DNA from: Botryllus schlosseri
Lineage: Eukaryota
Assembly: GCA_051294905.1 (NCBI GenBank)
Contig: CM119373.1
Span: 2,420,001-2,484,000 of the forward strand
Length of the DNA stretch: 64,000 bases
Direction of reading: 5' to 3'
Below are positions 1,415 to 50,994 of this stretch, in pieces; position 1 is the stretch's first letter, and each line of letters starts with the position of its first letter. The position numbers were made by a program, and so were the translations under genes. The notes under the pieces are model-generated. The model did not search any database, had not been told where the DNA came from, and worked only from the letters and a program-made list of their open reading frames with translations.

Positions 1415-3863
1415 CAGGGGTCGCCAACTCAAAAGGGGTCGCGGGCCACTTTTTAGACTTGCACGAGGTCGCGGGCCGCAATAATGTAGTAGCGAGACAA
1501 ACACGCCATACATCTTAGAAAGCATGTTTATGAAACATTACTGAGTCTACTACATCATCGTGCACTTCCTAACGTGGCCATAGGCATATAGTTACGACAA
1601 AAGAAACATTGTTTATTAACGAAATTTCAATACAACGAAAAAAACATCATGATCATCACTTCAAATATGATTAAATTATACGCTGCGCTTGAGACCTGAC
1701 AACGCTTTCCAGCGACTAAAGAATCGATGTCAGGGCTGATGGAGCGTTGGTTCGCAAGTCTCAAAATTGCTTTGAGATGCTCATCTGTTAGTCGCGAGCG
1801 TAAGGCTGATTTATTGATCTTCATGGTCGAGAAAAATTGCTCGCAGACATACGTACTGCCAAACATTGCGAGGATCTTCCGGAAGTGCGAAGAAAGCTTC
1901 GGAAACTAATGCTGCGGCAAGTACTTGAAGAATTCAGGCAAGGCTACTTCCGAATACTTTTCCTTCATTGCCGAGTCACATTGGAGATCCAACAATTCCA
2001 TTTGATATTCCTCGGTGACTGATCCGACATCAATAGTCATTGGTGTAGCAAAAAGAGCAAGTTCATTTTCCAGAGTCACAAAATCCTGAAATCTTGAATT
2101 GAATTCCGTATTCAACAACATGAGTTTATCAGAATATTGCTTCATATTCCCGAGCTCGACTGTTGTCAACGACCGGAGAGTTGCAAAATGAGCAAGGTTT
2201 CCGACTTCAAGTTGCTTTGTCCATAGCATCAGTTTGCGCCTAAATGATTTGATTGAATCGTACATCGCAGTTACAACTTTCATTCGACCTTGTAATGTGG
2301 TGTTTAAATCGTTCAGATGTGCCGTAATATCGCATAAAAACGCAAGATCAGAAATGAATTGTGCGTCTCCCAACTCTGGCACGTCTGCATCTTTCAGCGC
2401 CATGAATAAACCAATCTCATCTCTCAATGCGAAAAAACGTCTCAGCACATTACCACGACTGAGCCATCGCACTTCCGTGTGGTATAATATTTCGCCATAC
2501 TCACTCTCGGTGGCTTCTAAGAAAGCTTTGAACTGACGATGATTCAGGCCCCTCGAGCGAATGAAATTCACGGTTTTTACTACTACGTTCATAACACCAC
2601 TCATTCCCAAATATTTGCTACACAATGCCTCTTGGTGTATAATGCAATGTATGGCATGGATAGGAACGCCTAATGTCGTCATCTTGTTTCGTAGAAGCCC
2701 AACTAGGCCTACTTTTTCTGACCTCATGGCTGGAGCTCCATCGGTGGCTACTGAGACCAGCTTACACCAATCCAAATCGGCATGGTCGACACATTTGTTT
2801 AGCTCGCGGAATATGTCTCGCCCTGTCGTCGTAGTTTTCATTGGCAGGACCTCCAGAAGTTCCTCCGTGACGTTAAAATCTCTGTCGACTCCTCGGACAA
2901 ATACAGCCAAGACAGCGCTGTCGGTGATGTCGGTACTCTCATCCAGTGCCAATGAAAATGATTGGAAATTCTTTCCAATTGAGGATAGTTGTTGATACGA
3001 GTCTGCAGCCAATTCCGTGACACGACGAGCAACTGTACTGGCTGAAAGACTGACGTCCTCGAAGAGCTTGATCTTTTCTGGACATAATATTTCACTAGCC
3101 TTCAGTAGACATCGCTTCACATAATTTCCTTCGACAAATGGTCTCGAGTCCTGCGCAATCATTTCAGATAGGGCAAAACTGGCTTTAACTGACAGTTCAT
3201 TTGCTTTTTTCAGATTTGAGAAGTGGCTCTGCTGCTTATTCAAAGAATTCTTTAGTTGCGTCAACTTCTGTTCACGGTGTTTTCCAGTATAGTCTTGAAA
3301 CTTATCCTTGTGTAAAGACTCATAGTGGCGACGAACATTGTATTCCTTTCGGACAGCAATGGTAGAATAGCAGACGAGACATTGTATTTGGCCGTTGCAC
3401 TCTGAAACGAAATAGTTCAGTTCCCATATTTCCTGAAATGTCCTGTTCTCGTCCGATATCTTTCTTTTGGGCATCGTAAGTATGTAGGGAAGAAAAATCG
3501 CGAGAAACACGATTCCAGACTCCAACTCACCTAGTACGCGTATGAGGAAGTATCGAACTGTTTTGTAGGCCTATGCGTCTCGATCATTGTCAATGTCTGG
3601 TCCATTATTACGTCACAAAGTGTACCACTTCCTATCAGCTGATCATCTCTCGAGGGAGTGGAATTACCATCGCCAATGTGTTTTCAACGAGTGAGTGAAA
3701 ATAATGTAGGTCACATGAGAATAGAATATTTTGATCAACAACATTTTGAAACTGGAATTAATTTCAGCATTTCAATATTATTTACTCGGTGTTCATTCAA
3801 AATTTCAAATGGGTTCGCGGGCCGCAAAATATGACCTCGCGGGCCGCGTGTTGGTGACCCCTG
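1415..3863 (-). mobile_element. Full-length hAT transposon, Buster/Charlie/SPIN-like (2449 bp)
   Basis: TIRs CAGGGGTCGCCAAC / GTTGGTGACCCCTG (13/14 match); perfect 8-bp TSD GTGTAGGT (1407-1414 and 3864-3871); subterminal gcgggccgc repeats; internal transposase. Confidence 0.95.
1627..3474 (-). pseudogene. hAT transposase (SPIN/GTF2IRD2-like) with one in-frame TAG at 1906-1908
   Basis: ATG at 3474 (MPKRK). BED-type finger CLVC...RRHYESLH; catalytic-region motifs SLALDESTD, VATDGAPAM, HCIIHQEAL, EVRWLSRG. After the TAG the same frame continues FPKLSSHFRKILAMFGSTYVCEQFFSTMKINKS. Confidence 0.93.
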
Positions 3864-29465: not shown

Positions 29466-31540
29466 CAGTGGTCGGGAACCTTTTTTGTCCGAAGAGCCAT
29501 AGTGACCCCATATTTTCCATCTTAACTTCCAAAGAGCCATACGTTTTAATCAGCTAATACGTCACAATTGAAAAATTGTGACGACATGGTAGCGTAAATT
29601 CGTCGACTTTCGTCAGTTGTACGAAATCGTAGGTTCGTCTTCACGATATTTTTAAATGCGAGGACCCATGGGGACATAAGTAGGCGGAGCCAAAAATGAT
29701 GGTCACTACACAGCAGCATGCATACTAGGGCTGTCCAAAAATAACTTATTTTAGTGGATTTCAGTCGTTCAGCTATCAAATTGTCAGGTTACCCTAAAAA
29801 ACGCTACATACCAAATTTGGTTCAATTCTAACAAGTATAGGGCTCCGCAGATCCAATTAAATTTTTTAATTTAAACAGGAAAATTGAAAAAAAAATTTCA
29901 AATTTTTCTGTCAACCCCATGAAATTGTTGAGCTGTCTTCAGAGACGATGCAAAACAAATTTTACTCAATTCCAACTAGTAGAAACGGAGTTATTGGAGT
30001 TTTTCGTTGATATTTCTCGGATTATCCTTGATTGGTGGATAATACGAGGATTATCGACGAAAAACTCCAATAACTCCACTTCTACTAGTTGGAATTGAGT
30101 CAAATTTGTTTTGCATCGTCCATGAAGACAGCTCAACAATTTTATGGGGTTGACAGAGAAATTTGAATTTTTTTTTTCAATTTTCCTGGTTAAATTAAAA
30201 AAATTTATTGGATCTGCGGAGCCCTATACTTGTTAGAATTGAACCAAATTTGGTGTACAGCGTTTTTTAGGGTAACCTGACAATTTAATGACTGACCGAA
30301 TGGAATTCAGAAAAAACGTTATTTTTGAACAGCCCTAATGCATACCCACTGTAATGTGTGATGTGTCAGTGACGTGGTTTCAGGGGAGGCACGTGAGGCA
30401 GTGCCTTACCTGTCTACTAGATTTTGAACATTTTTACTACGAAAATCACGCAACTTACCTATTTATTGTTCGAAAATATAGCGTGAAACGGGAGGTAAGG
30501 CATTGGTGAGGCACGGCCGGGATTAGCATAGCGCAATTCTTCGTAAATATCAGAGAATTTGTAATAACTGATAACACTGGTCAACACATATTTTTAGGCA
30601 TACAAAGTAAGAGTGGGGTTGGTGGTTCTGAAGGGCGCTGATTCCGAAAATGACCTTAGTTTTTTCAAATTGGCTCTTGTTTTGGAGATAACTCATGGGG
30701 ACGACATGAGGTTTCTTCATAGTCAATTATTATCTATTGAAGTGCAGTATAAAATTGGAACAAACTACGATTTTCTTCTTGCCAAGGGAAATATTCAATG
30801 GTAAATACAGTAATTTTAGACTTTTTTAGGGGTACAAGAGCCAATCTCTAATCACTAATGTGATATTCGCAATCAGCAACCTCGAAAACCCCAGAAACGG
30901 CTCTTAGACCGAAGTCGCGATTATATTTATTCGTATCGCATACTTCATTTCATGAATCCATGCGGAATAAAATATTTCAAACAAAATTGAATGTAATAGC
31001 CACACCGATTCCGATTCGATTTCTAAATCCTCAAAGTATTCGGCGGTAACACAACGTTGTGCCACACGCCTACATCTGAACGGCAGCTGCAAAGTCACGT
31101 TGTCAATCAAGAACGTGGATCACTATGGCGTTGTTTGTAATTTGAATTTGTAATTGTGAATGTCACTTCCACGGAGTTCATTTCTCGCCGTAGATCAGGA
31201 AGAAAATGTGTATTTGAAAACTACATTGTCATACAGGCGTCGCCTTGTCTGCTATTCTCATTGAGCAATCAACGCATCGTGCAATCCGAGATTTCGTGGC
31301 GCAGGCGAGACAGCAACTTAGATTTGAGGATTTTGAAATGGGGTCCGAGCCCGTAACCCTGAATACGCCACTTTATTCACCTCTCAAAGACATGTTTATA
31401 CTGCCACAAGAATAATTATACTGGTCGTGCTGAGGATTTAATAACAAGTTGCTGCAATATTGATAAATTATGCACAAAATTAAAATTTTTGCAAAGAGCC
31501 ATACTTTATGCCCAAAAGAGCCATAGGTTCCCGACCACTG
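29466..31540. mobile_element. Non-autonomous hAT element containing further insertions
   Basis: TIR cagtggtcgggaacct/aggttcccgaccactg; perfect TSD CTATATAG; aagagccata subterminal repeats. Confidence 0.92.
29726..30337. mobile_element. Fold-back (near fully palindromic) hAT MITE, 612 bp
   Basis: ~300-bp inverted arms tagggctgtccaaaa...tttttgaacagcccta; perfect TSD ATGCATAC. Confidence 0.92.
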
Positions 31541-31719
31541 CTATATAGTAAGCCGATATGAATAAATAGGTTAGTATTGAGCTCACCCAAAATGGACACG
31601 GACAGTTTAAATTGGGTATTTGACGTCCAGTTTGTTCATTACGAACTATGTCCTGGAATGCGGCTTAAGGCTACATGACTACTCGAAATGCGGCCGTGAA
31701 TAGCAAAAAGATTGCCACC

Positions 31720-31840
31720 CCTGATCTACTTAAACCTCCAACACTTAGGTAGGAATTCAGGAGTCGAACTCGGTCGTACTCGAACCCACAAACCATTGGT
31801 GTTGCAGCTGTGGAACGTACCATCTCACCACAGCACTGTG
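31720..31840 (-). mobile_element. tRNA-derived SINE-like repeat
   Basis: Reverse complement contains tggtgagatgg...gggttcgagtacgaccgagttcgactcc, homologous to 20315-20420. Confidence 0.6.
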
Positions 31841-32726
31841 TTGTAGCATATATAGGATCATGTGGTACAAACATACCTACGTTAGTGTAAATGATCTAGT
31901 TGTAAAGTCAGGATGCAACTACTACACTGTCGAAAAGTGCAATGAAACTAGTGGTCGTTAATATCGCTAATGTAACGCAGTGCTGGCATTATATGATTTA
32001 GGCTTCATGAAAAGTACAACTTGTTTTATTTTTATGCTATTCCAGCTATATTCCTAACGTGCAATACTGCGGCGGCTACTCTATCATTCGGTTTCCTGAT
32101 ATTGAAAACAATATATATTTCGACTTTACCCTTCCAAATATCACTGCGTACCACTCTTTTTATAGCCTGGATTTACCGCGGCGTCTACTATGCACTGCCG
32201 ATGACGAAGATAGGCAAAATATGTACAACATTGATGCTCTAATATTTATATTGATTATTATAGAAAGAAAAAAAATAACACTATGCTCCAAATATCGGTA
32301 GTTATTCTGTAACATAAATTTATTCAGGGTTAGACAATATCAAATCAATTACAACCCGTCACGTAATTATCAAGTCATGCGAACAAAAGTAAAGCCATAA
32401 CTATATAGATCATTTCATATGCATTCCCATTAAATTCCTGACGAGCTTTCACGTCATATTTTCAATTCATCTTCCCCGCAGGATATTACCTAACATTGTT
32501 ACATTGATTCACTACGATGCTATCTATTTTACAGTCACCATTAATTAACAAAAGTCAATATTTGAAACAATGTAGCTCATTTCAATCTTCGCACAGCTTA
32601 GTATATATCAATATTGATAACTATAATATTGGATGTATAATTGTATATATATGGCGAAATAATTCTCATTATCCGTTCTTATTGACAATGGCAGAAGATT
32701 GAAGAAATGTGTGAAGGTTAAATATA

Positions 32727-32848
32727 TCACTCCGTGTTATTTACAATCACAGATAACATTTCGATACCGCGTGCGTTGATATGCAGGTCACCCCGCACCA
32801 ACACTGGTACATGGCTGAGTGGCTGATCCTGATTTGGACGATCAGATC
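32727..32848 (-). CDS. Candidate terminal exon (GSDRPNQDQPLSHVPVLVRGDLHINARGIEMLSVIVNNTE*)
   Basis: Strong acceptor ttcattttag|G in phase 1, matching donor CCAG|GTGGGA at 35208; AATAAA on the minus strand at 32319-32324. Alternatively the gene stops at 35194. Confidence 0.45.
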
Positions 32849-35800
32849 CTAAAATGAACCAGACATCTTCATCAATTACGATCCACTTTATATAGTTTTA
32901 CTATAATTAGGGCGAAGCATATTGGCTCGAATATGCTCCACTCCAAATCGAGTATTAATTGTAATGATCTAGCGGTAGAAGGTGTGACAATTTTCTCGAT
33001 CACTAAATATATACTATCGTATTCACTCAGATGTATATAAACAACGGAAATTATATATTCGATAGTTGCTTCATACCAAAAGATCCTTGCAGCCTCGATT
33101 AGTCATATCACAAAGAGCATGTGGCGAGAAGCATAGGCCTAGGTGCGTAAATGGCATCTAGTTTATGTGAAATCTTGATCAAGCCGTCAGCATTGGCAGC
33201 AAAGTAGGGATGGTGTGAACGTGAGGACCAAGTTCACATTCTGTGTGTGAACCTTCTAGATATGGAGGTTCGCGTTAGCAAACAAACCTTGGTATGTTCT
33301 GCACTGTGGACCTTTTTCATTTATTACAATTTGTCAGGTCATTATAACATCTTTTGTTAAACTTCATTCCATTTAAACCATTTGTGCTGGGAGTCAGAAA
33401 AGAAACATGGATGAATGAATGTAGGATTGTAGGGTTAGAATTGGCAATATGACGTCACGTGTCATGATTACGGTTGCATTTAAAACAGAAATGTTCAAAA
33501 CAAGGAATATGTTCAGAACACTGCTTAGAGCATGTTTTAAACAAACAGTTTTAAAACACCGTTTGTTTTAAATCGAACCCTAGTCGACAGAGGTTCACGT
33601 TTGCGTTCAGACAGGATGTTTCAAAAAGGTTGGGGTTCATGCAAACCAGAACCTTTCATAGGTCCACACCATCAGCGCACAGCAACAAGTACAATGATCA
33701 ACGTACGGTCGAAATAAATACCAAATCTTCTTTAATATGATGTGTACACTGCGCATAGTACATGGTAGTATTTTCTTTGTTGACGCATAAAGTGTATATA
33801 ATTCCACACTCTGTATATCCATACTGGAATTACGACGTAATGAATGATAGTCTGATACAGATGACTCCAAACCAAATGCTGTGTTCGTAATCGAATCGCC
33901 GAGGTATACTCGATTTTTACCTACTCTAATTAGAATATAACAATATACCGGTCTTAATTCTATATCGCTATAGTTTCCGTCTGCTGCTGGAGTTTTGGCT
34001 TTTATTTTTTTAGGCTATTATCTCCCGAATCGTCAAGTTACTGTAGCAAGTTCTTAGGATTGTTATTCAAGTATTTGTGATCTCCGGCAGGAGAGCACAT
34101 GAATCGCATGGAATCTTTGACCCGTACACCGATCAAGCAGGTGCCTTATAGCGGAAATTAGAGGTTAACACACTCTGTCCTTATCAGTCTAAATATTATT
34201 CACTGGTCCCATCTTAAGGGGAAGATAAAAAAATTCGTAGTCGTTTTTGAGAGAATTTTGAGAAAATTGAATGGTCTTGACCTATAGTGAGAATAACTTG
34301 ATCACTATCACTTCCCAGCTTCACAGTATCTATGCCGGCAAAATGACTTTATAAATTTGAATCGACATGCCCACTCTCAGGTAATTTTATGATTCAATTT
34401 ACAGGATTTCATGAATTGATCATTCGTGGCCACGACGAGAAGGACCGTTCTCTCAGTAGGGGTGTATTGTTGAATTTAATTGATAACACAGTAGTTTCGA
34501 GCAAGAATCATACTGAGACAGTATCAATGGGTTAGGTACTCTCGAAGGTAGGCTACATCTCACGGCAAAATAGTTGAAAATGATTGATTTGGAGGATTCA
34601 TGTGGCTAACACGAAGTCATAATTTCATACCAGAATTCGTCACTGTAGCGGGATTTTGACAACAAATTGCCGCCTACCCGTTAATATGGCGAGCCATCAC
34701 TGATATTATGAAACAAAAAGATATAATATATCATTGTAAGGTACTTGTAACAATGGAGTATTTTGGCACCGGATCCTAACACTATTCTTGGTAATCGGGG
34801 TTATTGTCAGACCATTCCTAACGATAATACAAATAGTTATAGCATATGCCTACAATCAATGATATTTCTGATGGTTATCCCGGCAAAATAACAACCAGAC
34901 ATACATGGTTGTCCCTTAACACGAGAACTCAGTGGATAAATTTATCAGTAAAATTGGAACGTGTTAAGTTAATCTGCTGAAAAATAAGTGTGCAGAGCTC
35001 TGTGAAACTGCACACCGTTCAGTCAAAATTCAGTAGCACCATAGTGGAATGGAACCAACGAAACAGGAAAGTTCATGCTAGGCCACATAAATTACCGCAA
35101 TTCATCGTATAAATACTGCATTGATATTCAATAAGCAGTTGAAGTCTACATAACTCCTACAAAATCATCATAATAGTGGTAGTGCATTCGCTTTTAATAT
35201 CTCCCACCTGGATCAATTCTGTATGGAAAGCAGTCGGGACTTCGCAACTCCCTTTCTCCGTCTTTAAGTTCAACCCGAATAGTGAATTCGATATTTGACA
35301 TAGGCTCGTCGCCTCTTAAATGACAACGTCGGAATGATGAGGTTGCATACTTAACGATTTTGCGAATATCAGGCGTGAGCAAGCCACTTTCGACAAACCG
35401 AAAACCCTGTTTATGGTTATCGCACGTCATACACATTCGGATTTTCTGGTTCCTTCTGCACGGTTGTGGACTGAGTTTCCTCATCCTCACATCATCTCCC
35501 AAGTCTTGTCTCATGTCGTTCAGCAACTGCGTTTTGGCAAGATGAGTGTCAAGAACCATCGCTACCACAAACTCTTTGTCCTTGAAAAAAATTACTGGCA
35601 ATATCATATAGGATTGGTTGAAAATATTGCGCAGCGTGGCGACCCAAGGACTAAAATGGCGGGTTTTGAGCTCGACAAATCTGGAATTTTCCGCGGGGAG
35701 AGCTGCGATGTTTTCCCATTTCTTGAAGCGTTCATTGTAATGCATCAAATCCACGACTTGATTGTCATTTTCATAAGGACACCAAGTGTGTAACTTTACA

Positions 35801-36403
35801 GTTGCTGAGTTACGCAGCCTTTTGGCGTCCACGTATAGAGTCGGAGTAATTGCCTCTTTCCCTTCTGGCCATTTTTCTTTGTCTATTTCCGCAGCTATGG
35901 TGATGGTTTGAGCTTCAGAGAAACAACCGGGGGGGAAAGAGACAAAGCAGCCCCCCACTTCGATTTCACAACCGTCCGTTCCTACGTTAACTGTTTTGAT
36001 TTGAGTTGGTACTTTTCTAACGTTTTCTTTCACGTCTTTAGCTTGTAGAGTTGATATAAGTGTCTTCGCCCTTACCGCGCCTAAAATTGCAAACTCCACA
36101 GTGATATTATCAGTGACTCACTGGAATCAGTAATATTAAACGATGTTTTATTGACAATTCCCCTTTAAACAAAATCAGATGTTTAAAAAATCACTTTTGA
36201 TAGGAGTTAGCAATGACGCTTGAAGTAAAATAAAATCCAACTGTTGCAAAAATTGTGATTCGGAATGGATATCCAAAGAGTTCGACGAATCAATACGAAG
36301 TTGAAAACTGATCAACATATAATAGCAATGAAGTCACGTTTACTTTCTAAGAAACTTTGAAGTTCCTATGTTCTTCTTTGGAAACCGACTGCACAAATTT
36401 CAA

Positions 36404-36434
<31 letters not shown>

Positions 36435-39400
36435 TACACACACACACACACTCATACAATCACACACACACACACATAGAACACACACACACGCACTAGT
36501 GCGAAGTATGAACCGGAGCCGGATTGGATATATTTTATATATATTTTTCAATTTTGGCCGGAGCCGGATAAGTACTTTTTTGATACTGCCGGAGCATGAT
36601 AAATAATTTCTGATACTGTCAGAATCTTTATGGATAAGCGTGACTTTCGTGACTAAATAACTAACAACCGAGCCGCAAGCCGCGAGCTGCGAGTAGCGTA
36701 TTTTAGACCTCTGCTGTAGACGTATTCTTAATAAGGGTATGCTAGCCTTCACTGAATAATGGGATGAATTGTGCATGCAAATATTCTTGCGAGTCTGGTG
36801 GTTGCGCGAGTTGTACGAGAACACGGGTTTGAATAATAAAGCTCGTTACCAACTTAGTGAGGCGAGATAATGGGGAAAAGCGACTGGGCTAGCATTGCGC
36901 TTAGCGGCCTTTTTGTTTTCGCCATCGCCTTAAGTTTGTCAAGTAGGGCCTACATACCTAGTATCGAACTAGGTATAGACCAATTGTAAATCGAAACTAT
37001 CTTGCCGTCAAATATTGTTAGGTCGTAAGTTGTGAAAGCAGAATCATCCTACTTGAGTACTCCTATAGATTTGAATAATTCTAACGTATGTACATATCCG
37101 CTACTTATATATACACGTCGTATCATGTCTTATTTGTTATTAGGCATTGTTTGTAACGCAGATCACTCTCAGCGTGTGAGCTCACCTGCGAGTTCAAGAT
37201 ACTTGTCAAGCAGTTTCCACCTTTTGACCAAACCTACATCATTTGGCTCCGTGATCACGTCATCAATAACATGCTGTGGCAGGTCTAACCCTTCCGGAGA
37301 TCGCGCGAAGTTTAGCCATCCCTTGTCGTCACACAATCTTGGCGATAAGATCAGGTTATCAAGTTCTTCGTGAAGCTCCTGGCGTTCTCTTTTTCTGGTG
37401 AAATACCGCGCAACCTTGTTACGCACATATTTCGGTGATACATTTTTACCTGCAACAACAAAAAAATGATGACCGTATGTGGACGTGATTTCCAAGGTAG
37501 TCGAACGAATTTTCTGCCTAAAAGTTCGAATGCCATCTTATTTTCGGATCACGGTGATTAAGTTACATCTGAAGATGACTTGCAAACCAGATACGTCACA
37601 TCCAGATAATCATTTATATTTATTTCTACCTCTGAGATGAATCCATTCCCGGAACGATGCGAGACTTTGTTCTTGATGTTCATATTTGGCAACATAGCTT
37701 TTAGGCAAATTAAGCCCTTCTCGCGACGTCAAGAAATCTACCCATTCTTCAAAACCTTTGAACTGTGAATATATTCTCTCGAAGCAGTCTTCATGTCTTT
37801 GCTTCTGATATCGATCGACCATCTGACGGACTTCGTCTACTGACCCATTATATCCTGGGAAAAATAAAAAAATACCTACGGCTTGTGCGACCAACAATAC
37901 AACAATATACCAAACAGGATGAACCAAACAAAACATTTTTATAGCATTTCGAAGGGCCGATTCCGATCACATTTTTGATACTCGAGCCCGAATTCAAGTC
38001 ATTGTGTCCACTTGTTCAGTTTTGAGTTCAAATCCGACCCACCTCAATTTTTCACAACTTCGTTAGAGTGTTATCGAATGCATCGCATTCGTAAGACAGT
38101 AATACAGGTCATGACTATTGTACATATACCCGAACTGATAGACAAAATACTAAAAATGTTGATAACTTAAATTAAAATATTTTAAACTTATTTAGTAGTG
38201 ATGTTGTAAACCTATGACGTCACGTGGCCTCATATTCCTATTTCCGACCACATATCAGTGAAGTGATATATTAATGGACTCGATACCTAGAGACGACACA
38301 GGCCACACTTTTTCAACGTCACCAAATGTATGAACTGGACCAATAATATAATATAATAATCCCATAAAATTTGTTGCTGTATGCTTTCTGGTCAATCTCA
38401 AAGCAGAGAGTCACTTAATATTCAAAAACGGAAAGCTGAATATTTGAGCAAACTTTTGTAACAAAGCAAGTGAAATTTTTGAGACTGGCATGGAGCATGT
38501 TGGTTTCGTGTTGATTTCTTCCTAGGCTACCTGTGCAATAACCATCATACATAGAGTGCCCCGAAGTTTAAATGCAAAGAATTCCAACCAAAGATGTTAA
38601 TAATGACGTGAAGAATTGTAATATATCCAAAATTTTCATAGCGCAGAACCTACCAAAGTTCGTTTGTGAACGTGAACCTCTAAATTTCGGAGGTTCACAC
38701 GCAGAACCTCACGTTCACACCATCCCTAGTATTCAGTGTAAGTAGTACTTTTGAAGTAATTTGAAATGTTGCCGAGATATCTGACGTCTCATCATTTCCC
38801 AGACCCGTTTTACCATTATACGCCGAATACGAATGCGTCAACAAATGTATTACCGTGCAGTTGTTTCCATTTGTTAAATATAAGCGACTGCTGAGACGGC
38901 GTTTCTGTCAGATCTTCGCCGGTTGTGCTATCAAGAAATTCGACCGGGATTCTCATTCCAATTGAAGACTTGAAAAATTCACTCCGTTCTTTCAAGTCAA
39001 TTAGCCTCGCAAATATTTCATTGAACGCCTCGTCAGATGCTTTTTGCTTGTGACGTTTCAGGAGCTCTTCTCTCTTCGAATATCGTACCACCAATTTGTG
39101 AAGATTGTTCGCGGTGGCGGAGTTTTCTTAACGTGTATAGTTACAATGCTGATCAACACATTCATAAATAACCCATAACACTGGTAAACACAATTTTTGT
39201 TGACTTTGATCAGACAATTAATTTCGATTAACTTTAGGGCGCTGAATTCAGAAATGACTTCCGTTTTTCTCTATCACGTAATGTTGTTGGGGTAGGCACC
39301 CACCCCATTGTCTCATAATGCACATAAAAGTACTATACCTGTAATATTTTGTGTTTATTGTATAAAACGTTTCAAAAACCACAAGCATTCGAAAGTAAAT

Positions 39401-42400
39401 CAATAGACTCGAAATAAACATTTGCACTGCCTTATTTGGTTGATTTAAACTGATATTGCTTCTGAAGGACAAATAAAGTGTGAGTTTCAGGGCCATATTT
39501 ACGCTAATAACCCATAATTCTGCGGGCTGTCTTGTTTGATACTCGAGCAATAGTCAGCTAACATATGTAAGCTCCAATCTACTCTGGTATCTTACCTCCA
39601 TCATCTTCAGATTTTGGGGGATAATTTTTCCTTGCCCATCGCTGTCTATGCCAAGGTTTTCCGGGAAATTATTTATATATTTTAGCTTTTTTGAATGTCT
39701 GCTGTCCGACACAAACATGTAGTAGTGGCACATGTGTATCAGGGTTATATGTGCATTCTTCTTGTCTGACCACTAAGAAAACACAATATTTCAAAGCTGA
39801 CACACATGATCCAATCCGAATCGTGGTTGCAATGAGTGTAACAATTCAATATTTCTGTATCATTTACGAAGACTAACTGAGTGTACAATTGCTACTGCAC
39901 CTAAGACGTTGCCATTCTGGAGAATGTCAAACTTTAGAATCCTTTTCGGGCTGCCAATAGATATTTTCCATTCGCTTGAGTTGTAAATCGGGATTCATGT
40001 CCCCTCCAGCAACCCTTGGTCACAGTATCATGCCAATGTCAGTGTTACAGCAATACAAAAATCTACCGAAAGTAACCATATACGATGAAAACGCCATTTC
40101 TTGTTATCGAAAGTAAGATATATTCGCTCTCTTGTCACGTAATCTTTTCTCAATTCGCAAGGATGCTAAAAGTTCCGGATATTTCTCTTCCAAGTCCCAA
40201 AGCCTATGTCAGATCATTTAGTTTGTGTTGAGGACTGCTCTGCGTCTGAACCATCTTCAATTTCAAAATCTTCATTATTAGGCCTGCCATCCCTGAGATC
40301 TTAATCTTGATCCAAATTATCGAACTTATTGAAGTTTCAAGTTGCTCTGGATATGCTGAATGGAGCTATAGCTGATGGTAAACGTAATGGTATTTTTTTA
40401 TTACCATATCCTGCAGTTTGCATCATATATATGTCTGAAATATCCTCGTACGATTGCATCCTCTAACCGAAAATGAGTGAAAGCATCGGCCTAGATCAGT
40501 GGTTCCCAACGTGGGCGATATCATCAACCAAGGAGCGATTTGGCGGTCTAACGGGGTGAAAATAACGAAGGGGCGATAGGGGGGCGATGGCGCGTTAAAA
40601 CGGCTATCTTGGAGTCAAGTCGGAGAAATGGTCTCTTTTTTAAAGCCTACTCGCCGGTGATTACAATTTGAATGCACATTTTTCAGTTCCTAATTTTTTG
40701 AGGGCAATGGTCGGTGTGGAACTGGAAAAGGGGCGATGAGTCGAAATAGGTTGGAAACCACTGGCCTATATCGATACCAGTACCATTTTTTCACAATAAT
40801 TTAATTGACCCCTTGACTATATAACTTATTATATCATAAAAGTGTGGATTTCTATATGGTGGGGAAAAGTAATATGACTAAATTTGTGAAAATTTTGATA
40901 TTTCCGGCATATGTCGTAGAATAAAAAATTGACGTGATGGAACAAATCCATCGGCATTTTTGGAATCAGCATACCAAATCAGCCTAGATCAAGTGCAAAA
41001 TAAAAGTCATCAAATTTTTCGTTCAAAATTGTTGTCCAGTGTAATAGACGATGGTTTAATATAGCTAGCGAACCTTGATTACTACGAGATGTTAGAAATA
41101 TCAGGTCGGAATATTTGGCGTAGACGGCAGGTCTGGCATATTCAGTTCAAATTACTGTAAAGTGAAATGGTTTCTTATACATTGATTCTGTTATGTATGC
41201 CCGTAAAATTTATACACTAAATGTTGTCTAACTGACTGCATTGTCTCAGAGTGAACTAGGCAATAGCTCCGTGTTGAAATGCAAGTCATGACCTATGAAT
41301 TCCGCAGTGCATCGGTAACTATACAATGCATTAGGCTTTGCAGGGATTTCATTCATTTTGTACTCGGTGAAAAACAGATAGGTTCCATAACTTACCGTTC
41401 ACAGACTTCCAATATTCGAACATTGCAGATTCCTGTTCCCGTACCGATGGAAATTTGAACAACTTCTTCTGTTCTGATATATGTATACCAAATCCATCCA
41501 ACGAACTCGCAAATCTACGGTATTCGGCCGAGTCGGAAAATCGCAACAATACTTCATTTTCGAACACGTATTGGATGAATTATTCCAGCCATATGATGTT
41601 ATTTTTAAGGATGGTGTGAACCCCTTAAAGGTTCAAGTTCGTGTCAATGCGAAACTTTCTAGTTCGTGTCAATGCGAAACTTTCTGAAAGGTTTTGTGTG
41701 AACGCGAAGGTGAACCTCATGACGTCATGTGACGTCATATTACTAATTCCAACCCGTATATTTCATTGAAGTGATAGTCAATATTGATGTACACGATGCC
41801 TAGCGACGACTACATAATATCACAACGCAGCAGTACATATTGACGTTTTAAACGTCGCCAATGTATTAACTGGGGCAATCAAATGATATGTTAATCCCAT
41901 AAAATCAATATATTCCGTCGCTTTGCCAACAATTTCGACGAGGACTTGCAAGGGAATATCAGCTTACCCCTTAACGGTCTAGGCCAGACCGGACAATGTT
42001 TTCGGCGTCTGCCTCTCTACTTGCTGATCATATTACTCCATTAACAAGTTACACAGCAGTAACCAGCAACCCAATCGCATGGATTTGGTTTTTATGGTAC
42101 AATGAACATATGGTATCAAGATTGGCTACCTACGCCTGCTATTTTTTTTATCAGACAACGATATCAATTTGATTGAATGGTTGAATAAGTCTCATTCGCT
42201 GACTGCACCTACATGTAGAGTATTTCTCTTTTGATGTTGTGTGAATGACAGTAATTGGGGGTCAAGCTCACAGCAGAGAGTCACTAAATATTCACAAACG
42301 GAAAGCTGGATATTTCACGCAAGATGCATGCTCGTTTAGTGTTGAGTTTTTATGCTGCCAGCACCGTGCATAGAGTGGCCAGCAGTTGAAATGCAATAAC

Positions 42401-45400
42401 TTTCAAGTGAAGATATCTTAATGAAGTGAAAATTGTAAAATATGAAAAAGGTTCACAGTGCAGAACGTACCAAGGTTCGTTTGTGAAAGTGAGAGCCTAA
42501 ATTTTTGAGGTTCACACATAGAACGCAAACGTGAGCCTCACGGTCACACCATCCCTAGTTATTTTCAATATTTGGTATGTGAAGTCCATTAGCAGACGGG
42601 CGATATCAAACAAATAAACAATTACGCAACAGCAGAACAAAACATCATAAAATAATCAAGAAAATGCTGTTTAACTTGAAATCCAATTTGAAATACGAAA
42701 TAACGTATTGTTACGCAATACTTAAATCATGGAAAGTTATGTTGGTTCGAGCATAGTGTCCTATATGGTGTCGACACAGGCAAATCTCACGCCTCAGTGA
42801 AATTGTATCACGTCACCATTTCCATTTGACTACAAGCAATTTGACGGTCATTTTTGACCGGCTTGCCGACCATTAAATTTGGTGAAACGGGTATCAATCG
42901 AAAGCTGACTCTGCACTGATTACGAAAATATACATTTTATTCCGCTCGTGGCCCTGGAACTACCACAATCAGATTGGCATTGGAACGCAACAATGCTGAA
43001 CAATGCTCTCTGTTTTTTTCTTCTCTTGAGCTACTCTCTCGTTTCGCCAGATAGCATTGTTGCGTACCAAATGGAAATTGTGACATGATACAATTTCATT
43101 GAGGCGTGATATTTGTCTGTGTCGACACCATATAGGATACTATGAATATCGTACACGCATCACCAGTTCTAACTGACGGCATTTGAATTATAGTTACTCA
43201 CCTAACACGCTTTTTGCCTTGAATGTCACTCGATGAGAAATTATGTCGACATTGTTTGATGTCTGTCCATCGTTTGAACTCACAACATACATAACATTAA
43301 TTGGATAGTCTGCCGTTTGCCGTGATCTTAGTCGATATATCCTGGACACGAAGAACGAACCGGTGCGAAGAAACATTTTGGTGAGCGTAAATCTCGACAA
43401 CACATTATTTTTTCCATCAAATGATACTTGATCATCCGGGGTTAATATTCTCATGTTGACCGTAACATCATTAGTAATTTTCATATCAATAGGCTCGAAG
43501 CGACACAGACGGCTGTAACCATTATGAGTCATCGTGGCTTCGACATCCATCTCGAAGTAGGGATGATATTGATGAAAAGTGACAACGATCTTATCGTTCT
43601 TTGCCCATATGAACCCGGATATCCGGATGTTCGTTGATTGACGTACAGATTTACAGAACGCTCTAATGGTGCCGGACGCTTTACATTCAAACTTCAACAA
43701 TTTCTTCATTGCAGCTTTCTTGACTAGTGACCATGCGTCAAATCCATCTTCACATTGAAATATCTCGGCTATTGAATTCTCATCGTACTTTTGGTATGTG
43801 ACCAAATTAATGGTGATGCTTTTCTTGGGATCGGCGTCGAGATACACACTTACCGCCGGTGTGATAGGTATGTATTCAGCTGAATGTTCTGGGGCTTGAT
43901 TGTTCACACGAAGGAAAACCTGCATAGGATATGACAGAGATTGGTTGAATACAAGTGTTGACTTCGTCAATGTTATGGTAATCCTGCAGTAGTGGAATTC
44001 ACAGGAGACACACATCTGATTCATTATTGTAATATCGTTATCTTTATTACATGAGGCACCGACTAATTAGTTTCAATGTGATTTCATACGGGTACGCGAT
44101 TATATTGGGTATAAACATTAGATATTTTACTGTAATGATTGTAATGATTCGAAAAATGCTTTAACTGTAAAATAGGTAACTCCTTTGAAACCTCCATATA
44201 AATTACATTACCACTATTCGCTTGATATTACGATAATATAAATTTTATTTCAACGTTATCAGGGTATTCGACTGACACGGGGATATCAAGTAACACATGC
44301 GCAGGACTCAAAAGTCGATAAACTGTGCCGAAAAAAATAACTCCAACGTCCTTAATATTCAAAATTTCATTCAGGTTACGTCAGATTTGATGATTATTCA
44401 TCTTTTTTTCGATTCTCCACTAGTTGCTGTCCTTTTGCTGACGTTTAATCCTGACAGGTATATTCGGGTTTATTTGAATATGAAAAGGCAACAACAGATT
44501 ATGAACTATAACACTGAAGCATCGTAAAAAACGTATATCTAAAAGTATGCCATGTGACACAGTATGTTCTGTTTGCATATACTGGTGAAATGAGGCTGCG
44601 TTCATTAAGTGCTGAAGAGTTGAGTCTCCTTCACAGGCCTATTTCTCGCAGTCAATCATAAACTGCTAATTCATTATACAACAACACGTGATAAGGTATA
44701 TTGATCGCATACTGTGTCTGAATGTGACCTAAACAGAGGCACTCCATTGAACATAGGTAACCCTAGATCTTTACAGAGGTCTACGTATTGTGTATGTCCT
44801 ACTAAGCAATGATCGATTATATGCATCAGAAGCCGAAAGTCATATTACTCACGTCCGCTACCAATCACCATTCTCGGCATGCCAAGTAATAATATATTCA
44901 CCTGGCATTCGTTTGGCAGCGAGTTGTCGTAAGGAAATTGAAATCTACAGCTTCGGAAAGTAATCGTATCGCCCGTGTTCCTGATGGTCGACTCTGCAGT
45001 AGTTAAGGAAAGAAGTTACCAGATTATATGGGTTGGACAAGCACTATGCACTTTGTACTACCAATACCTGTTACGTCGACCCACGTACTTTGCGACGCCA
45101 AGATTTCACCATCATTAATTTGTACTTTCAATTTCTGCCGACGAAAACAATTGGAACTTTTTAGTAACAAAACTAAAATCAACAGAATAAACGGAGGTAG
45201 AAGCGTAATTTTGATTTCCGTGTTTGAAACTCATAATGAGAATTTTTCTATCATTTCTGTTAATCGAATACGTTGGATATTTGGAAATTGTTGCAATAAC
45301 CGTAGGTGATTTAGGATAACAGTTATGTTAGCTTATATGCAATTAGATTTATTTTCTCCATAATATTAAACAGTTTATGCGACCTCTATTTTGTTCATTT

Positions 45401-48400
45401 GTAACCCTAACCATTTAATATAAACATACTTACCGGATTTTTTATATTGTTCAAAGCTCGTTGTATCGTTTGCAATTCGTTTTCGCCAAATTCCCAGCCT
45501 GTGCAATCACAGAACTCCGATACAGTTTGCAAGAAGTGAGTTAAAGATTGAATATCCTCATCTGTTGGCACTCTGCGATGTTGGCGGAACGTTGTACAGT
45601 TGACCTGTAATGAACCCAAGGTGGCATATACGCCTTGCAAGAATTTCGTGCAGAACGTCGACCATTTGAAATATTCGCAATCATAAATACCTCTAGTATA
45701 GTCTATAGCGGTGGTTCTTGACCGCCGGTCCATGGCAAGTCACCAGCGGGCCCGACAAATATATTAGCACTTTGGACCTCAATTCGAAAATGCCAGAAGT
45801 TGGACGATGTTCCACTAAGTAGAGAAATATGATTTCAAATTTTAATTTGATTGAAAGTTTCTGACGTATTCTTGCATGATGTCGTAGTATAGGTCATAGT
45901 TTATTTTTGGCATACGTATCAATTTTGTAAGTGTTGTGCGAGGCTGATAAGAAGTAGCCTACAGCTCGGGTCGGACAAGTTATATGTTCAACCTGGCGAG
46001 ACCTTTAAACGAACAATACAATTAGGCGACTCTTGTCAGAACAATAAAGATTACAGCTGTGCAACGACGTTCTGACGAAAATGGGTAATACTCATGGTTA
46101 CCACAAAAAAGCAATAACCTATTAAAGTAGTACATATACAACAGGAAATATCATGATCATAACGTCATTTTATTTTGTACTATGAGCTGAGCACGAAACC
46201 CGACAACGCTTTCCAGACATGTTACTAGCTGAAAGACCATCTCAACCTACAGATCGATGCTGTGGGGACTTTCTATAGGCCGTTTTCTAAGCGCCTCGGT
46301 CTTAGCAGTGTCTGGGCCATTGCACGTCAAGGAAATATGCTTATTGACATAAGGTGACTCTCCATCGATGGAATGCTTTTTCCATCGCGGAAGCCGCTTC
46401 AGCTAGTGTGGAATAGTGTTGTGGGCGAATAGTTTATTTTTAAACAACAACAATAATATTAATAATTTGAAACTGAAATCAATTTTAGCATTTCAAAATA
46501 CTTTGTTTCGCGTTCTTCCAAAAACACAAACCAGATCGCCGGTCGCGATTGCGGTGAACCCTAGCACAAAACGTGCCAGTCTTGGTGTACAGAAGTTGAC
46601 CATTCTCATGATTTGAATCGACCTGATTTTAGCTGTATTTATTTCCGTTTCACAATTCCATTCAATTTCAAAGTTATTGAGAATTCTGTAATTTTAATTA
46701 TAATATAACTTGGAAAAACTTTTTATCAGCCCGCGAAGTGTAACAGGTTGAGTGGTGTACAGAATTTCACCTTGACAATATCCTCTACATTCCATAGTTG
46801 CTCATGCAGTGCTTCCAGGAAACGACTCGATATAAGGCAACCGTCAAATTTCAATTGCGCCACCCTACCACGGGCACGTATGCAAGACGATAAAGCGCTG
46901 GCATCTGCTCGATTTAGTTTGATGGAGTTGCTGGGAATCATGGACAAGTTTTCGAATTCATCAATGACACCATCCCCAAGAAGGCATTTGGACTCCGCAA
47001 ACAAATGCAGGGCGCGAAGCTGATCGTCGATGGTTTTCGCTGATTCTAGCCAGCGACGAATCAATATTTCACTAAATCCAATGATATAACGTTTTTTGTA
47101 GTAGTGATCAGTTAACAGTTCGGCTCTTTTCTCGCAATCTAAATATAACTTCAAATTATTACACAAAGACAAGGAATGAAAATGGGTTTCTTCTGACCGG
47201 GATCAATCAGGTCAAAAGCCGTTTCTGTCATTTCGTTATCTGCAAAAAGTCCACTCAGTATTTGCCAGGCGCCATGGAAATTCTTATTGTCCACTGCAGC
47301 TTCATACTCATCTTTTAATCTTGATCTATCGCAATCGTAAAGATACAGCGCCGCGAACCCGTCTAAAATAATCGGATGACAAAATGACATCAAAATTTGA
47401 CCCCCAATCGCAATAGTTTTCGTCAAGAATAGAGAATCAAGTTCGAATCGTTTTGTGTCCGAACTGGTTATTCCGTGTTTCGCGAAGTCCTCGGCGGTGA
47501 ATGTCGAACGACCATCTTTTCTTGCGTCATAGCATGCGGTCATGAATTTACGAAAGTCTTGGATTAAATTTTTCCGCTTGATCGCGCTGAGAAGCTGCAG
47601 AAATATGCCCGCTTTTCCTATAAGAATCTTTTCGGAATCATATTTGATAGCATGAAGAACGTAAAGTAATATCATTGGATTTTCGCATAGCGCCGTTGAA
47701 TATGGTGTCATTTTGGAAAAGTTGGTTTCGTATAAATTAAGTTCATCACTTGGAAATTGACTAACAATCGCCTGTACCGCGTCTACGGTTAATCCTTGTA
47801 CATGGTATGATCTATCGATATCAATTCCAATCGCATTAACGGAGTTCATATTGTCCTCGTGACAGGAGGACACGACGAAGCACCCAGGATATTTCTGACC
47901 CGATAATATTTCAATTAAAGTCTCGCGGGACTGATTTTCTTCTCGAGTGATGGGTCCGAGTAAAATACGATCTATGTCATCGAATATGAAGCATACTTTC
48001 GAAGGATATTTTGCAATCCAATTTGCTGCTCTTCTTGCAAACTCGTCGGGATGAGACTTGTCGTTTTGATATACGGTAGTTTCAGGACATTCAACTAAGA
48101 ACTGAGTATCCGAGTCTCCTATATCGTCGAAGATTATATTAGATACAGTTTGGTGCCCGTTGCTGGGGAATCGACGGAAACCACAGCTCACTGATATGAT
48201 GACGTCAACGTCACGGTTCAACGATCGTGGTGGTTCAGTCGCCAGATCGTGCTTCAGCTCTGCTAATACCGTACTGCGACCAGAACCGTCTTGTCCTGTA
48301 ACGCAAACGTGACAACTTTTTTTGCTGGGGAGTTGTTGTTTGGAGAGAACTTGCAACAGTTTGGAGCCTTCAATTATCGATTCGTGGGATTGTAAATCTC

Positions 48401-48569
48401 GGATGATGATGTTATTGTGTAGTTGGGGACGGAGAAATCCCTTTTCCGTAATGCTGATCATTCCGTAATGCAGATCATTTGATATCTCTGCAAATCGATG
48501 CTCCCGGACATAGATTGCAATGTCATGCTCAGTGACACGATGCGGAGACACAAAATCTTTCAATCGACA
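32727..48569 (-). CDS. Multi-exon NLR-like gene: NACHT - degenerate LRR-like - ZU5/UPA-like - 4x death-domain-like - ZU5(HFS)/UPA-like - short tail (5' end incomplete)
   Basis: Exons 48569-47198, 47138-46771, 45604-45434, 45134-45068, 44993-44902, 43919-43202, 41551-41396, 39126-38854, 37854-37630, 37449-37186, 36080-35208 and 32848-32727. All introns are GT-AG with matching phases; total 4701 nt is one open frame of 1566 aa. The 41551 acceptor and the last exon are the weakest parts. Confidence 0.72.
35208..36080 (-). CDS. Exon: end of death-domain repeat 4, ZU5 with HFS motif, UPA-like domain
   Basis: VGTDGCEIEVGGCFVSFPPGCFSEAQTITI...AITPTLYV...SATVKLHTW...W...FVELKTRHFSPWV fits the ZU5 pattern; acceptor ttttag|GC in phase 1. 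Confidence 0.85.
36404..36492. repeat. Imperfect (CA)n microsatellite
   Basis: Direct reading. Confidence 0.95.
37186..41551 (-). CDS. Four phase-1/1 exons encoding tandem death-domain-like repeats
   Basis: Exons of 156, 273, 225 and 264 nt end in WKSVN, WKQLH, WIHLR and YLELA, each followed by a phase-1 G|gt donor. The next exons begin NSATANNLHKLV, YNGSVDEVRQMV, KNVSPKYVRNKV and AVRAKTLISTL, resembling the death-domain W-x4-G-x-x-A-T-x3-L-x3-L motif. A shared F-x-x-S-x-x-G-L/F/M-x-I/L core recurs in all four. Confidence 0.68.
38200..38728. mobile_element. Partial TAGGGATGGTGTGAAC-family hAT MITE (intronic)
   Basis: Ends gttcacaccatcccta; aligns to 41720-42557; another left end at 33205. 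Confidence 0.75.
40497..40763. mobile_element. hAT MITE, family of 9314-9714 in opposite orientation
   Basis: TIR cagtggttcccaac/gttggaaaccactg; TSD gcctagat/gcctatat (7/8). Confidence 0.85.
41606..42557. mobile_element. TAGGGATGGTGTGAAC-family hAT MITE just upstream of death-domain exon 1
   Basis: Termini taaggatggtgtga/tcacaccatcccta; perfect TSD GTTATTTT. Confidence 0.88.
42752..43144. mobile_element. MITE with ~75-bp terminal inverted repeats
   Basis: catagtgtcctatatggtgtcgacacag...ctgtgtcgacaccatataggatactatg; no clear TSD. Confidence 0.75.
43202..45134 (-). CDS. Three exons encoding the first ZU5 plus UPA-like module
   Basis: KLKVQINDGEILASQSTWVDVT|ESTIRNTGDTITFRSCRFQFPYDNSLPNECQ|VFLRVNNQAPEHSAEYIPITPAVSVYL...SITINLVTY...W; collinear with the ZU5 exon at 35208-36080. 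Confidence 0.72.
45434..47138 (-). CDS. Exons for the post-NACHT helical region and short degenerate LRR-like segments (47138-46771, 45604-45434)
   Basis: QLRALHLFAES; IKLNRADASALSSCI...QLKFDGCLISSRFLEAL; DEDIQSLTHFL...DCTGWEFGENELQTIQRAL. Splice phases are consistent. Confidence 0.65.
47198..48569 (-). CDS. NACHT NTPase-domain exon
   Basis: Walker A-like VCVTGQDGSGRST; Walker B-like VCFIFDDIDRI; YHVQGLT; LCENPMIL; winged-helix-like MSFCHPIILDGFAALYL. A 59-nt phase-1 intron (47197-47139) links it to the next exon. Confidence 0.9.
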
Positions 48570-48963
48570 CTACATGCTAGTGAATGTATAGGGGTATCTG
48601 ATCGCATGTGCAAGATTAAATAATTGCATGTGATTGAGATAGGGGTTTCGTCACGATACTTCAATGCTAATTTGGGTTGGGCAAAATCGAGCATTCAACT
48701 GAATCGAGCACCACTCAATGTGACGTCATCCACCGTAAGAGTGATTTTTAAAGTACAAATATGTATTTCGTGTTTTATCTTACCAATAATTATTGCATAG
48801 ACTGTCAGTATGTGACAATGCTCAAAATGTTCGTGTCCCCGCGAACATGCGCATTGCGCATCATCGTGCGTCATTTGCCTGATATGAGTGATATCATACC
48901 ATCAACCGTAGTTTTCAAAGCTTCGATATCGATGATGGGAACGTAATGTGAACAGACACATAC

Positions 48964-50994
48964 TTCCAGCCGTTGAAACAATTCTTGTCGAAATGATTGA
49001 GATTGCATCGTGTCAATGTTCGAAAACATCAGCTCCTGTGACCAGGCGCCAATCATTACAGTCAATACTTGACGCCAATACTCGACTCGCTGCGCCCAGC
49101 CGCAATGATAATCAGTAGCGATTTCGCGAATTCTACTTTCACGACTGTTCCTCATAAACTTTCTGTGGCGCTGGAACAATGATATTTACCTTGCACAACC
49201 AATACGTCCGAATCCAGGACTACTTTGAATTCGGATTGTATTGGATAAAGGAATATAATGAAATTTAATAGGTAGTTCACGTTATAGATCAACAATAATG
49301 CTTACTCGCTCAGCTACAGATTGGGGTTTTAAAATAAGATCTACCGGGAGAATGTATAGTATTAGCAAAAGTAGGAGAGCCGTACGATAAGCCAATCAAA
49401 TACAAACTCACAATTTGAGATGCAAATCGGAAAGATGTAACACAAATGTATGACGATTGAATGCAAAACCGATAATATAAAACCATATTGTGTCGTTACG
49501 CAAATTCTTTCGAAATCTTTCAATAATAAATTTGCGACAACAAAACATCTGATAACGGACAACGTGCTTACGCGATGCTGGAATATATCATAAAAGTTAT
49601 TGACTGAAGATCATAAAAGTCAAACTCATGCGGAATGCATCGCGCAAGTGTGTTATTTCACAATGATTCACCGACTTCTTTTTGACTCCAAAGTCGGATT
49701 TACGTCATTCCAACGATTTCGCACTAGCTATCGCTTGCGATACTTGGCTAACATGCACCTGGGTCATATTGCCTTATGAGAGCTGATACCATTCCCTGGA
49801 AGCATGTTAGCTCCAATCGTCTTATCTACTTTAAGCTGTCCATTAATACTGTATACGTAATCACCATGAGATATTGCTTCAAACGATGATACAATTACTT
49901 GTAATACATCTGATTATGATCACAAACATCTGATATTGTCCACTTACATACGGAACAATGCAGTATGGAATGCGTGGATCTATCGTTTATCAATCCTCGT
50001 ACCAAGGACATTTGTCGATTGAGTCCTCCGGGCACCACGGACATTTTAAATGCCAGTATCACCTTCGTGACCGTAAAGGTAATTGAGCACCTATTCTGAA
50101 TAGCTGATTTGAGTTTTGACATAAACAGACCGACTTGTTAGGTAATCCTATGCCAGACATATATTCGTAGCATCTTACAGTGATGTATTACAGTGACGGC
50201 TCGTCACAAGATCGAAAGAAGGAGGCAGGGGAATAAACTCCAGTATTTTTTTTCAAAATGGAGCATTATGACACGAAAATGTTACTTCATTGTGGTCGCA
50301 CGACAACAGGGCACATCAACCAGCATGCCGCCGCACAGTGCTGGCCGTGAAAGGCTCGTAGGAGTGCCGCGACGTAAATCTAAATACCATAGATATTTTT
50401 TGGGTATAGTCATTTTGTTAGAATTAACGCGAGAAATAACCATCTAAGTAAGAAGTCGATATCACGCGGAAAGGTGATCAGTTTGGAATTCGACTCTCAA
50501 ACCAAAAATTATCGTACGTAGTCCACTCATTTATTTCGCAGACTTTTGGAGAATACAGTGACGGCGAAAAATATTAACATCTAAAATCTATCTAAGTTAG
50601 TAATCTTGTTCATTTGTACAGCAGCATCATTTTCGCGGAGTCATCACCACACAGATCTATCACAACATCTTATACATTGCCTACTATGAACACTTGAACA
50701 GTTATACATAATCATAGTGTTGAAAGAACAAGTAACATTTAATATTTACACGAAAGAAAAACCTTATATTGAGTATTTATGCACATCAGTGTAACTTCTG
50801 CTGTTTCCTTTCAGATACCAGTTCAGAAATAGAGGCCTTTGTCTTGGAAAATGTCATCGTATTGTTCAGTCGAAGCGCTACACGTGATAGCAATTGTTTA
50901 ATTGTCAACGAGCTTTTCAATACTGGAGATAAAAGTGACATTTCAAAAAGACGGGGTACCGATTTCGAATCCAAAACTAACTCCTTATACGCCA
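48964..50994 (-). CDS. Candidate upstream exons of the NACHT gene (49170-48964, 50095-49952, 50994-50819)
   Basis: Open frames bounded by AG/GT with compatible phases; no recognisable domain; start codon not identified. Confidence 0.45.

Follow-up and report, generated by a model that had tools for sequence, protein, structure and literature searches.

Serine-mediated self-cleavage is described for PIDD1, Nup98, UNC5CL and CARD8 (PMC3210808, PMC7883297), and the ZU5, GPS and Nup98 domains have been placed in one superfamily (PMC3482391). In CARD8, the autoproteolysis site lies in the loop ahead of the last ZU5 strand, and the fragments stay associated after cleavage (PMC3210808). PIDD1 cuts after both of its tandem ZU5 domains, behind which come a single UPA and, at the C-terminus, a death domain (PMC3210808, PMC7883297). 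In the accessible literature on NLRP1/CARD8-type processing, self-cleaving FIIND sensors have been characterised only in vertebrates, and the accessible text of PMC8195603 and PMC11508797 adds no invertebrate case. Proteins with NACHT and ZU5 are known from the expanded NLR repertoires of sponges and cnidarians as domain combinations with no function assigned (PMC8260672, PMC12909245); the available parts of these two accounts describe no cleavage site, no pattern of dead and live domains and no tail. The available literature on ZU5, ascidians and NLRs does not describe a gene layout like the one presented here. Nothing joining ZU5, RHIM, amyloid and invertebrate was found in open-access text without supplements, and the matches in the wider literature were mostly NLRP1/CARD8 or unrelated work.

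The gene analysed here lies on the minus strand of a 64,000-nucleotide stretch of Botryllus schlosseri DNA (the window). It probably encodes an NLRP1-like cytosolic sensor with a probable 40-aa tail, likely cutting itself once, at the HF/S site of its last ZU5. Eleven exons, from 48569 to 35208, splice to 1526 codons without a stop, the start codon being provisional. The predicted order is NACHT, an LRR-like stretch, a ZU5-UPA without the motif, four helical modules, the ZU5-UPA with HFS and a probable last exon of 40 aa. The HFS codons are read at 35650-35658 (minus strand; sequence context FVELKTRHFSPWVAT), with the predicted scissile bond F/S between 35653 and 35652, and they lie in the exon of the second ZU5-UPA (FIIND-like; 35208-36080, 873 nt, AG/GT ends, phase 1-1). 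HFS is unique in the whole gene model including the candidate last exon (1566 aa), and it coincides with a conserved family column in the alignment of the in-genome copies. In the shuffled 275-aa domain, HFS would arise anywhere with a probability of 0.015 and at one given position with 5e-5.

A ZU5-UPA fold is predicted for the module with HFS. The AlphaFold2 model reached a pLDDT of 90 (20-row alignment), and its best structural matches were UNC5b (Z 18.4, rmsd 3.5, 255 aligned; Foldseek E 1.6e-11) and ankyrin-B (Z 17.6), with the CARD8 FIIND at Z 15.8 (rmsd 3.0, 235 aligned). In the Atlas, the module scored 0.96 with ZU5 on 47% of the cluster, a recognition below the Atlas threshold, and no match was found at the sequence level in Pfam, including Pfam FIIND, or in PDB sequence searches. 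The HFS triad forms residues 125-127 of the model, in a loop ahead of the last ZU5 strand (129-133). Alignments with GAIN chains stop at model residue 126, the phenylalanine, against residues 837 of latrophilin-1 and 382 of GPR56 (Z 6.6 and 6.3), which are the leucines before the cut, i.e. P1 (PMC3321182, PMC13123842). This cleavage register consists of alignment end points at moderate Z, and the structural matches listed included no PIDD1 or Nup98 row. In the model, HFS thus occupies the canonical autoproteolysis position of the last ZU5.

The earlier note on this DNA had claimed an HFS in the second ZU5 and none in the first, and both readings hold; the position just ahead of the final ZU5 strand agrees with the proposed type of cleavage, here by register with GAIN P1 and not with PIDD1, and the motif is also kept in homologues, namely the in-genome paralogues (Ser or Cys in 28 of 33 copies). 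The first ZU5 is encoded by 44902-44993 (first strands) and by 43202-43919 (second half, together with the first UPA), and the part collinear with the HFS region reads KFECKASGTIRAF, as in the earlier note. At the site equivalent to HFS it carries the codons for A-S-G (43671-43679), with Gly at the nucleophile position. Homology to the family was found with an HMM (E 1.3e-5, among 20,271 ORFs), and hhalign of the first against the second ZU5 (E 8e-5, probability 60%) set K-A-S-G over R-H-F-S; the Atlas gave no match at 0.9 or above. Judged by these comparisons, the first ZU5 is a distant homologue of the second. A Phe-Cys register, suggested by a non-significant BLAST alignment (E 0.48, RAFC gapped over RHFS), was rejected in favour of Gly at the nucleophile site: the hhalign result, the Phe conserved four positions earlier (-4) and the strand with AFCK behind the motif all speak for Gly. 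This strand reads PVGAFCK in two paralogues versus TIRAFCK in the first ZU5.

With the NLRP1/CARD8 FIIND the gene shares the order NACHT-(LRR)-ZU5-UPA, the fold match to CARD8, the nucleophile before the last ZU5 strand and a single cut, here predicted, near the C-terminus. Unlike there, the triad is HFS and not SFS (SF/S), no CARD was found after the UPA by paralogue comparison and helical-module profiles, no Pfam FIIND match was obtained for this copy, the predicted active ZU5-UPA is preceded by a further one that lacks the motif and by four helical modules, and the Walker A motif carries Arg. PIDD1 and UNC5CL have the identical HFS triad at the ZU5 end, and PIDD1 also has two ZU5 domains; however, each ZU5 here has its own UPA, the motif is present only in the last, a NACHT is present and the death-domain-like modules precede the predicted cut. 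The arrangement found is ZU5-UPA ... ZU5-UPA with one HFS, and not the PIDD1-type tandem ZU5-ZU5-UPA with two cleavage motifs. The module is predicted to work like the FIIND/PIDD autoproteolytic module, with PIDD1 itself excluded by the single site and the different layout. The UNC5b/ankyrin supramodule gives the best structural matches and is similar also in the death-domain-like module after ZU5-UPA in the first repeat, but these proteins have neither the motif nor a NACHT; in UNC5b, Leu677 stands at the position of the Phe (PMC3210808). GAIN/GPS domains (latrophilin-1 and GPR56, both HL/T) belong to the same superfamily and their P1 residue is in register with the Phe of HFS, but they are extracellular GPCR domains without a UPA and match the model with moderate Z (6-10).

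The upstream part of the gene begins with the NACHT exon (47198-48569, 5' boundary provisional), which is in the same spliced open model as HFS and matches PF05729 above the cut-off (E 2.4e-11). In its Walker A motif (48296-48270, minus strand) Arg replaces Lys, as it does in a paralogue on C2. Replacement of this Lys impairs switching in NLR mutants, and the NACHT with Arg is possibly that of an ATPase-impaired NLR. A 59-nt GT-AG intron follows (47139-47197), with a 60-nt GT-AG counterpart at the same place in the paralogue. A frameshift in the NACHT exon was considered for this region and rejected, since the intron is common to the paralogue and a contig breaks at its acceptor. The next exon (46771-47138) is helical and LRR-like, and two small exons conserved in the paralogue (45604-45434 and 45134-45068) end the LRR-like stretch, which was assigned by eye and gave no match in Pfam. 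The helical modules are encoded at 41396-41551 (module 1), 38854-39126 (module 2), 37630-37854 (module 3) and 37186-37449 (module 4), the last three in phase 1-1 and the last two death-domain-like. Module 1 has a weak acceptor and is shorter than in the paralogue, and skipping it preserves the frame. A repeat element with inverted ends is located just upstream of it (about 41607-42557) and its insertion may have cost the module its original acceptor. A 104-aa ORF that precedes the NACHT exon (48874-49185, minus strand) is a possible N-terminal exon; it matches neither Pfam nor the paralogue and lacks a clean splice link.

A 74-aa model of a helical module showed four helices and matched vFLIP (Z 5.8), the Fas DD (5.4) and a TNFR1 complex DD (4.9) at ranks 1, 2 and 4 of 48,161, values that are low for a helical protein. 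Foldseek found nothing for these modules and Pfam Death did not match at this gene. We tentatively regard them as death folds. What the earlier note called a NACHT-DD body before the cut contains the NACHT, but it also comprises the LRR-like stretch, a ZU5-UPA, four helical modules and most of the second ZU5, and the DD identity is weakly supported.

A search of the 495-Mb assembly with its own ZU5-UPA gave at least 39 matches, and a profile scan of the stretches around them yielded 39 segments, of which 33, including this gene, were kept (6 were duplicates or did not span the motif). At the motif site 15 copies have HFS, five HFC, eight another x-x-S and five x-x-G, so that the nucleophile is kept as Ser or Cys in 28 of the 33 and is Gly in five. 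Of the 268 columns, those of H, F and S stand at ranks 29, 28 and 45 in conservation, thus the motif columns are conserved but not exceptional. Among the 22 copies with codons read, Ser is encoded by both AGY and TCN, and Cys and Gly are the sole exchanges seen; this restriction could be a size limit in a tight turn. In latrophilin, Gly is a dead substitution that preserves the fold (PMC3321182). A tree of 34 rows, with the motif columns included, has four changes between nucleophile and Gly. Five of seven Gly modules (the five copies and two of the first-ZU5 type) are followed by helical modules or another nearby ZU5-UPA; one of the others has an HFS copy 36 kb downstream (candidate linkage) and one a stop. 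Gly copies tend to be internal.

NACHT matches were found on the same strand 9-34 kb upstream of four other ZU5-UPA copies. The paralogue on C2 (C2:35,277,000-35,350,100) is about 40% identical and has its exon order in common with this gene, with a NACHT, a dead ZU5-UPA, 12 helical modules and another dead ZU5-UPA ahead of an HFS ZU5-UPA; a last exon was not found in it. The order from NACHT to HFS is thus repeated there; no single read spans the whole of the gene in the window. A gene at C3:443-456 kb consists of a motif-less ZU5-UPA, a helical module and an HFS ZU5-UPA plus tail. Most of the paralogue regions scanned have no helical modules near the ZU5, and stops are present in several paralogues. 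Outside this genome, sequence searches with the domain found no relatives among longer proteins and, as weak evidence, one 335-aa protein with QFS.

Beyond the HFS exon, a candidate last exon (32727-32848, minus strand) would add a 40-aa tail with a hydrophobic, Gly- and Asn-rich end, followed by a stop. A possible poly(A) signal, AATAAA, is found at 32319-32324, and a 166-nt contig of a presumed RNA run lies between the two (32422-32587). A contig from such a run matches the genome as far as the donor of the HFS exon (35207) and then has 68 letters more, thus the gene probably continues beyond this exon; another stops matching at 47138, a predicted acceptor. Several exons are covered, at low depth, by contigs of two runs that are only presumed to be RNA. 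A contig at 38748-38882 extends into an intron and indicates that DNA may be present in that run. In four raw RNA runs, of which 6-13% each was sampled, reads were mostly on repeats, depth was zero in the bin 35453-36103 and no splice joints of this gene were seen, and a fifth gave no depth in 35232-35885. Transcription of the gene is thus weakly shown. Comparison with the paralogue and searches with helical-module profiles found no conserved globular exon downstream of the HFS exon. In other individuals the sequence diverges by about 2-5%, exons included (window positions 30000-49600), which indicates high polymorphism.

Tails are present elsewhere in the family. Fourteen copies extend past the UPA by at least 35 aa to a stop, although in at least one the frame may simply run on into an intron. 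In five others the tail has an exon of its own, in phase 1. Each of the 19 tail-bearing copies has Ser or Cys at the nucleophile site (naive p 0.008, the copies not being independent). Many paralogue tails are alignable and mutually related. Like RHIM, HET-s and BASS motifs they are short, follow a polar linker and end the protein, and their Gly/Asn/hydrophobic patterns resemble those of amyloid signalling motifs. In bacteria, such motifs are described as favouring N/Q/G/V/I over K/P/L (bioRxiv 2020.01.06.895854). By this measure 13 of 15 paralogue tails, which are related and were partly picked by eye, lie above the 88th percentile of 10,540 ORF ends, and the candidate tail of this gene is at the 92nd percentile. 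Unlike those motifs, the tails have no G-h-Q-h-G core and are C-terminal on an NLR. Pfam RHIM (PF12721) had no match above the cut-off in the whole genome and none at the tails, no other Pfam family matched the tails, and the tail alignment had no match among PDB sequences. Five tail searches for an effector or partner with a matching motif found none; apart from ZU5 paralogues they gave a single weak stray match (E 1.1). Tunicates are reported to lack RHIMs (PMC4262963). The paralogue tail profiles did not pick out the candidate last exon of this gene, and in pairwise comparison its tail shows no significant similarity to theirs (p 0.44, 0.71 and 0.31). In a leave-out test with the in-exon tails as query, one separate tail exon was a clear detection (first of 171, E 0.0006), another came first of 155 but only weakly (E 1), and two were missed. 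For the closest paralogue no tail was found within 30 kb.

If the protein is made, we are fairly confident that it cleaves itself at HFS. After folding, the Ser hydroxyl would attack the carbonyl of the preceding Phe, and an N-O acyl shift would be followed by hydrolysis, the chemistry of PIDD1, CARD8 and GAIN domains. With the candidate last exon the predicted C-fragment has 148+40 = 188 aa (21.9 kDa), which agrees with the fragment of about 190 aa given in the earlier note; the number holds only with 32848-32727 as last exon. That note had this fragment released by the cut alone, which is probably an oversimplification. The cut precedes the last ZU5 strand and the CARD8 fragments stay associated, thus release would need a second step. 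The C-fragment of about 22 kDa, consisting of the last ZU5 strand, the UPA and the tail, would remain bound to the rest. More speculatively, damage or degradation of the large N-fragment might free the UPA-tail part, in analogy to the functional degradation of NLRP1 (PMC11760013), and the freed part might oligomerise and signal through the tail; both the release step and the role of the tail are speculative. The first ZU5-UPA would act as a structural spacer.

The ZU5 domains of UNC5 and the ankyrins are not known to cleave, and these proteins are the top structural matches of the model. HFS might accordingly be inherited and structurally tolerated in a non-cleaving scaffold like their ZU5-UPA, a reading that we consider improbable. 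It would fit the 13 of 33 copies that deviate from HF[S/C], and a structure of the BAI3 GAIN domain shows no cleavage in spite of Ser at the site (PMC3321182). But all three motif residues are present here, both codon families of Ser are represented with Cys and Gly as the only exchanges, and last copies keep Ser/Cys while loss of the nucleophile tracks internal position, which counts against a tolerated motif. Still less probable is a site competent for cleavage in an allele that is silent or decaying, so that nothing is made. Most exons have no reads in the five raw RNA runs, a repeat lies beside module 1, the 5' end is provisional and several paralogues contain stops; however, the raw runs were sampled only in part, the eleven exons remain open over 1526 codons, contigs of two probable RNA runs lie on exons and break at the predicted splice sites 35207 and 47138, and the exon order is common to a paralogue of about 40% identity.

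The protein might also cleave but signal through the N-fragment, with the NACHT and the death-domain-like array; the cut would then remove or loosen an inhibitory UPA cap and leave the tail unconstrained. This is unlikely, though it deserves the most weight of the three rival readings. Every candidate death-fold module would stay on the N-fragment, the tail of this gene matches nothing, and in PIDD1 the precursor and the fragments differ in role (PMC7883297). Against it, related C-terminal tails are kept in many paralogues, helical modules are absent near the ZU5 in most paralogue regions scanned, and the Lys of Walker A is replaced by Arg.

Returning to the NLRP1-like sensor with a single cut in its last ZU5, the HFS motif by itself is of a kind already known; new are the layout, the single predicted cut and the fragment predicted to be CARD-less. 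Together with its paralogues the gene provides a natural set of predicted live (Ser/Cys) and dead (Gly) domains. The whole expanded family, with at least about 30 modules and several of them behind a NACHT, might consist of NLRP1-like self-cleaving sensors in which the UPA of the released fragment is fused to a short amyloid-forming motif instead of a CARD and the internal copies are repeatedly disarmed by Ser-to-Gly exchange so that only the last one cuts; we regard this as rather doubtful. If true, functional degradation of the NLRP1 style would be joined to amyloid signalling of the HET-s/RHIM style in an animal from a lineage, the tunicates, in which RHIMs are reported to be lacking, and with the tail as amyloid signalling motif the NLRP1 mechanism would gain a new kind of output. 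If the tail is not amyloid, the gene would still be a clear invertebrate case of predicted FIIND-type processing with an unusual layout.

Some further observations concern the genome and the window. At least 94 NACHT exons (224 candidates) point to a large NLR expansion. A divergent ZU5 at C3:13,222,885, with a domain of another kind after it, lies in an open frame of 724 aa. On many contigs, dozens of nearly identical exons for a Pfam Death domain are arranged in inverted pairs with about 5-20 kb between the partners, as though the arms of a foldback transposon carried them. Near the start of the window, a 554-aa ORF (1906-3570, minus strand) encodes a Spin-doc zinc finger (PF18658) and resembles transposases of the hAT/GTF2IRD2 type.
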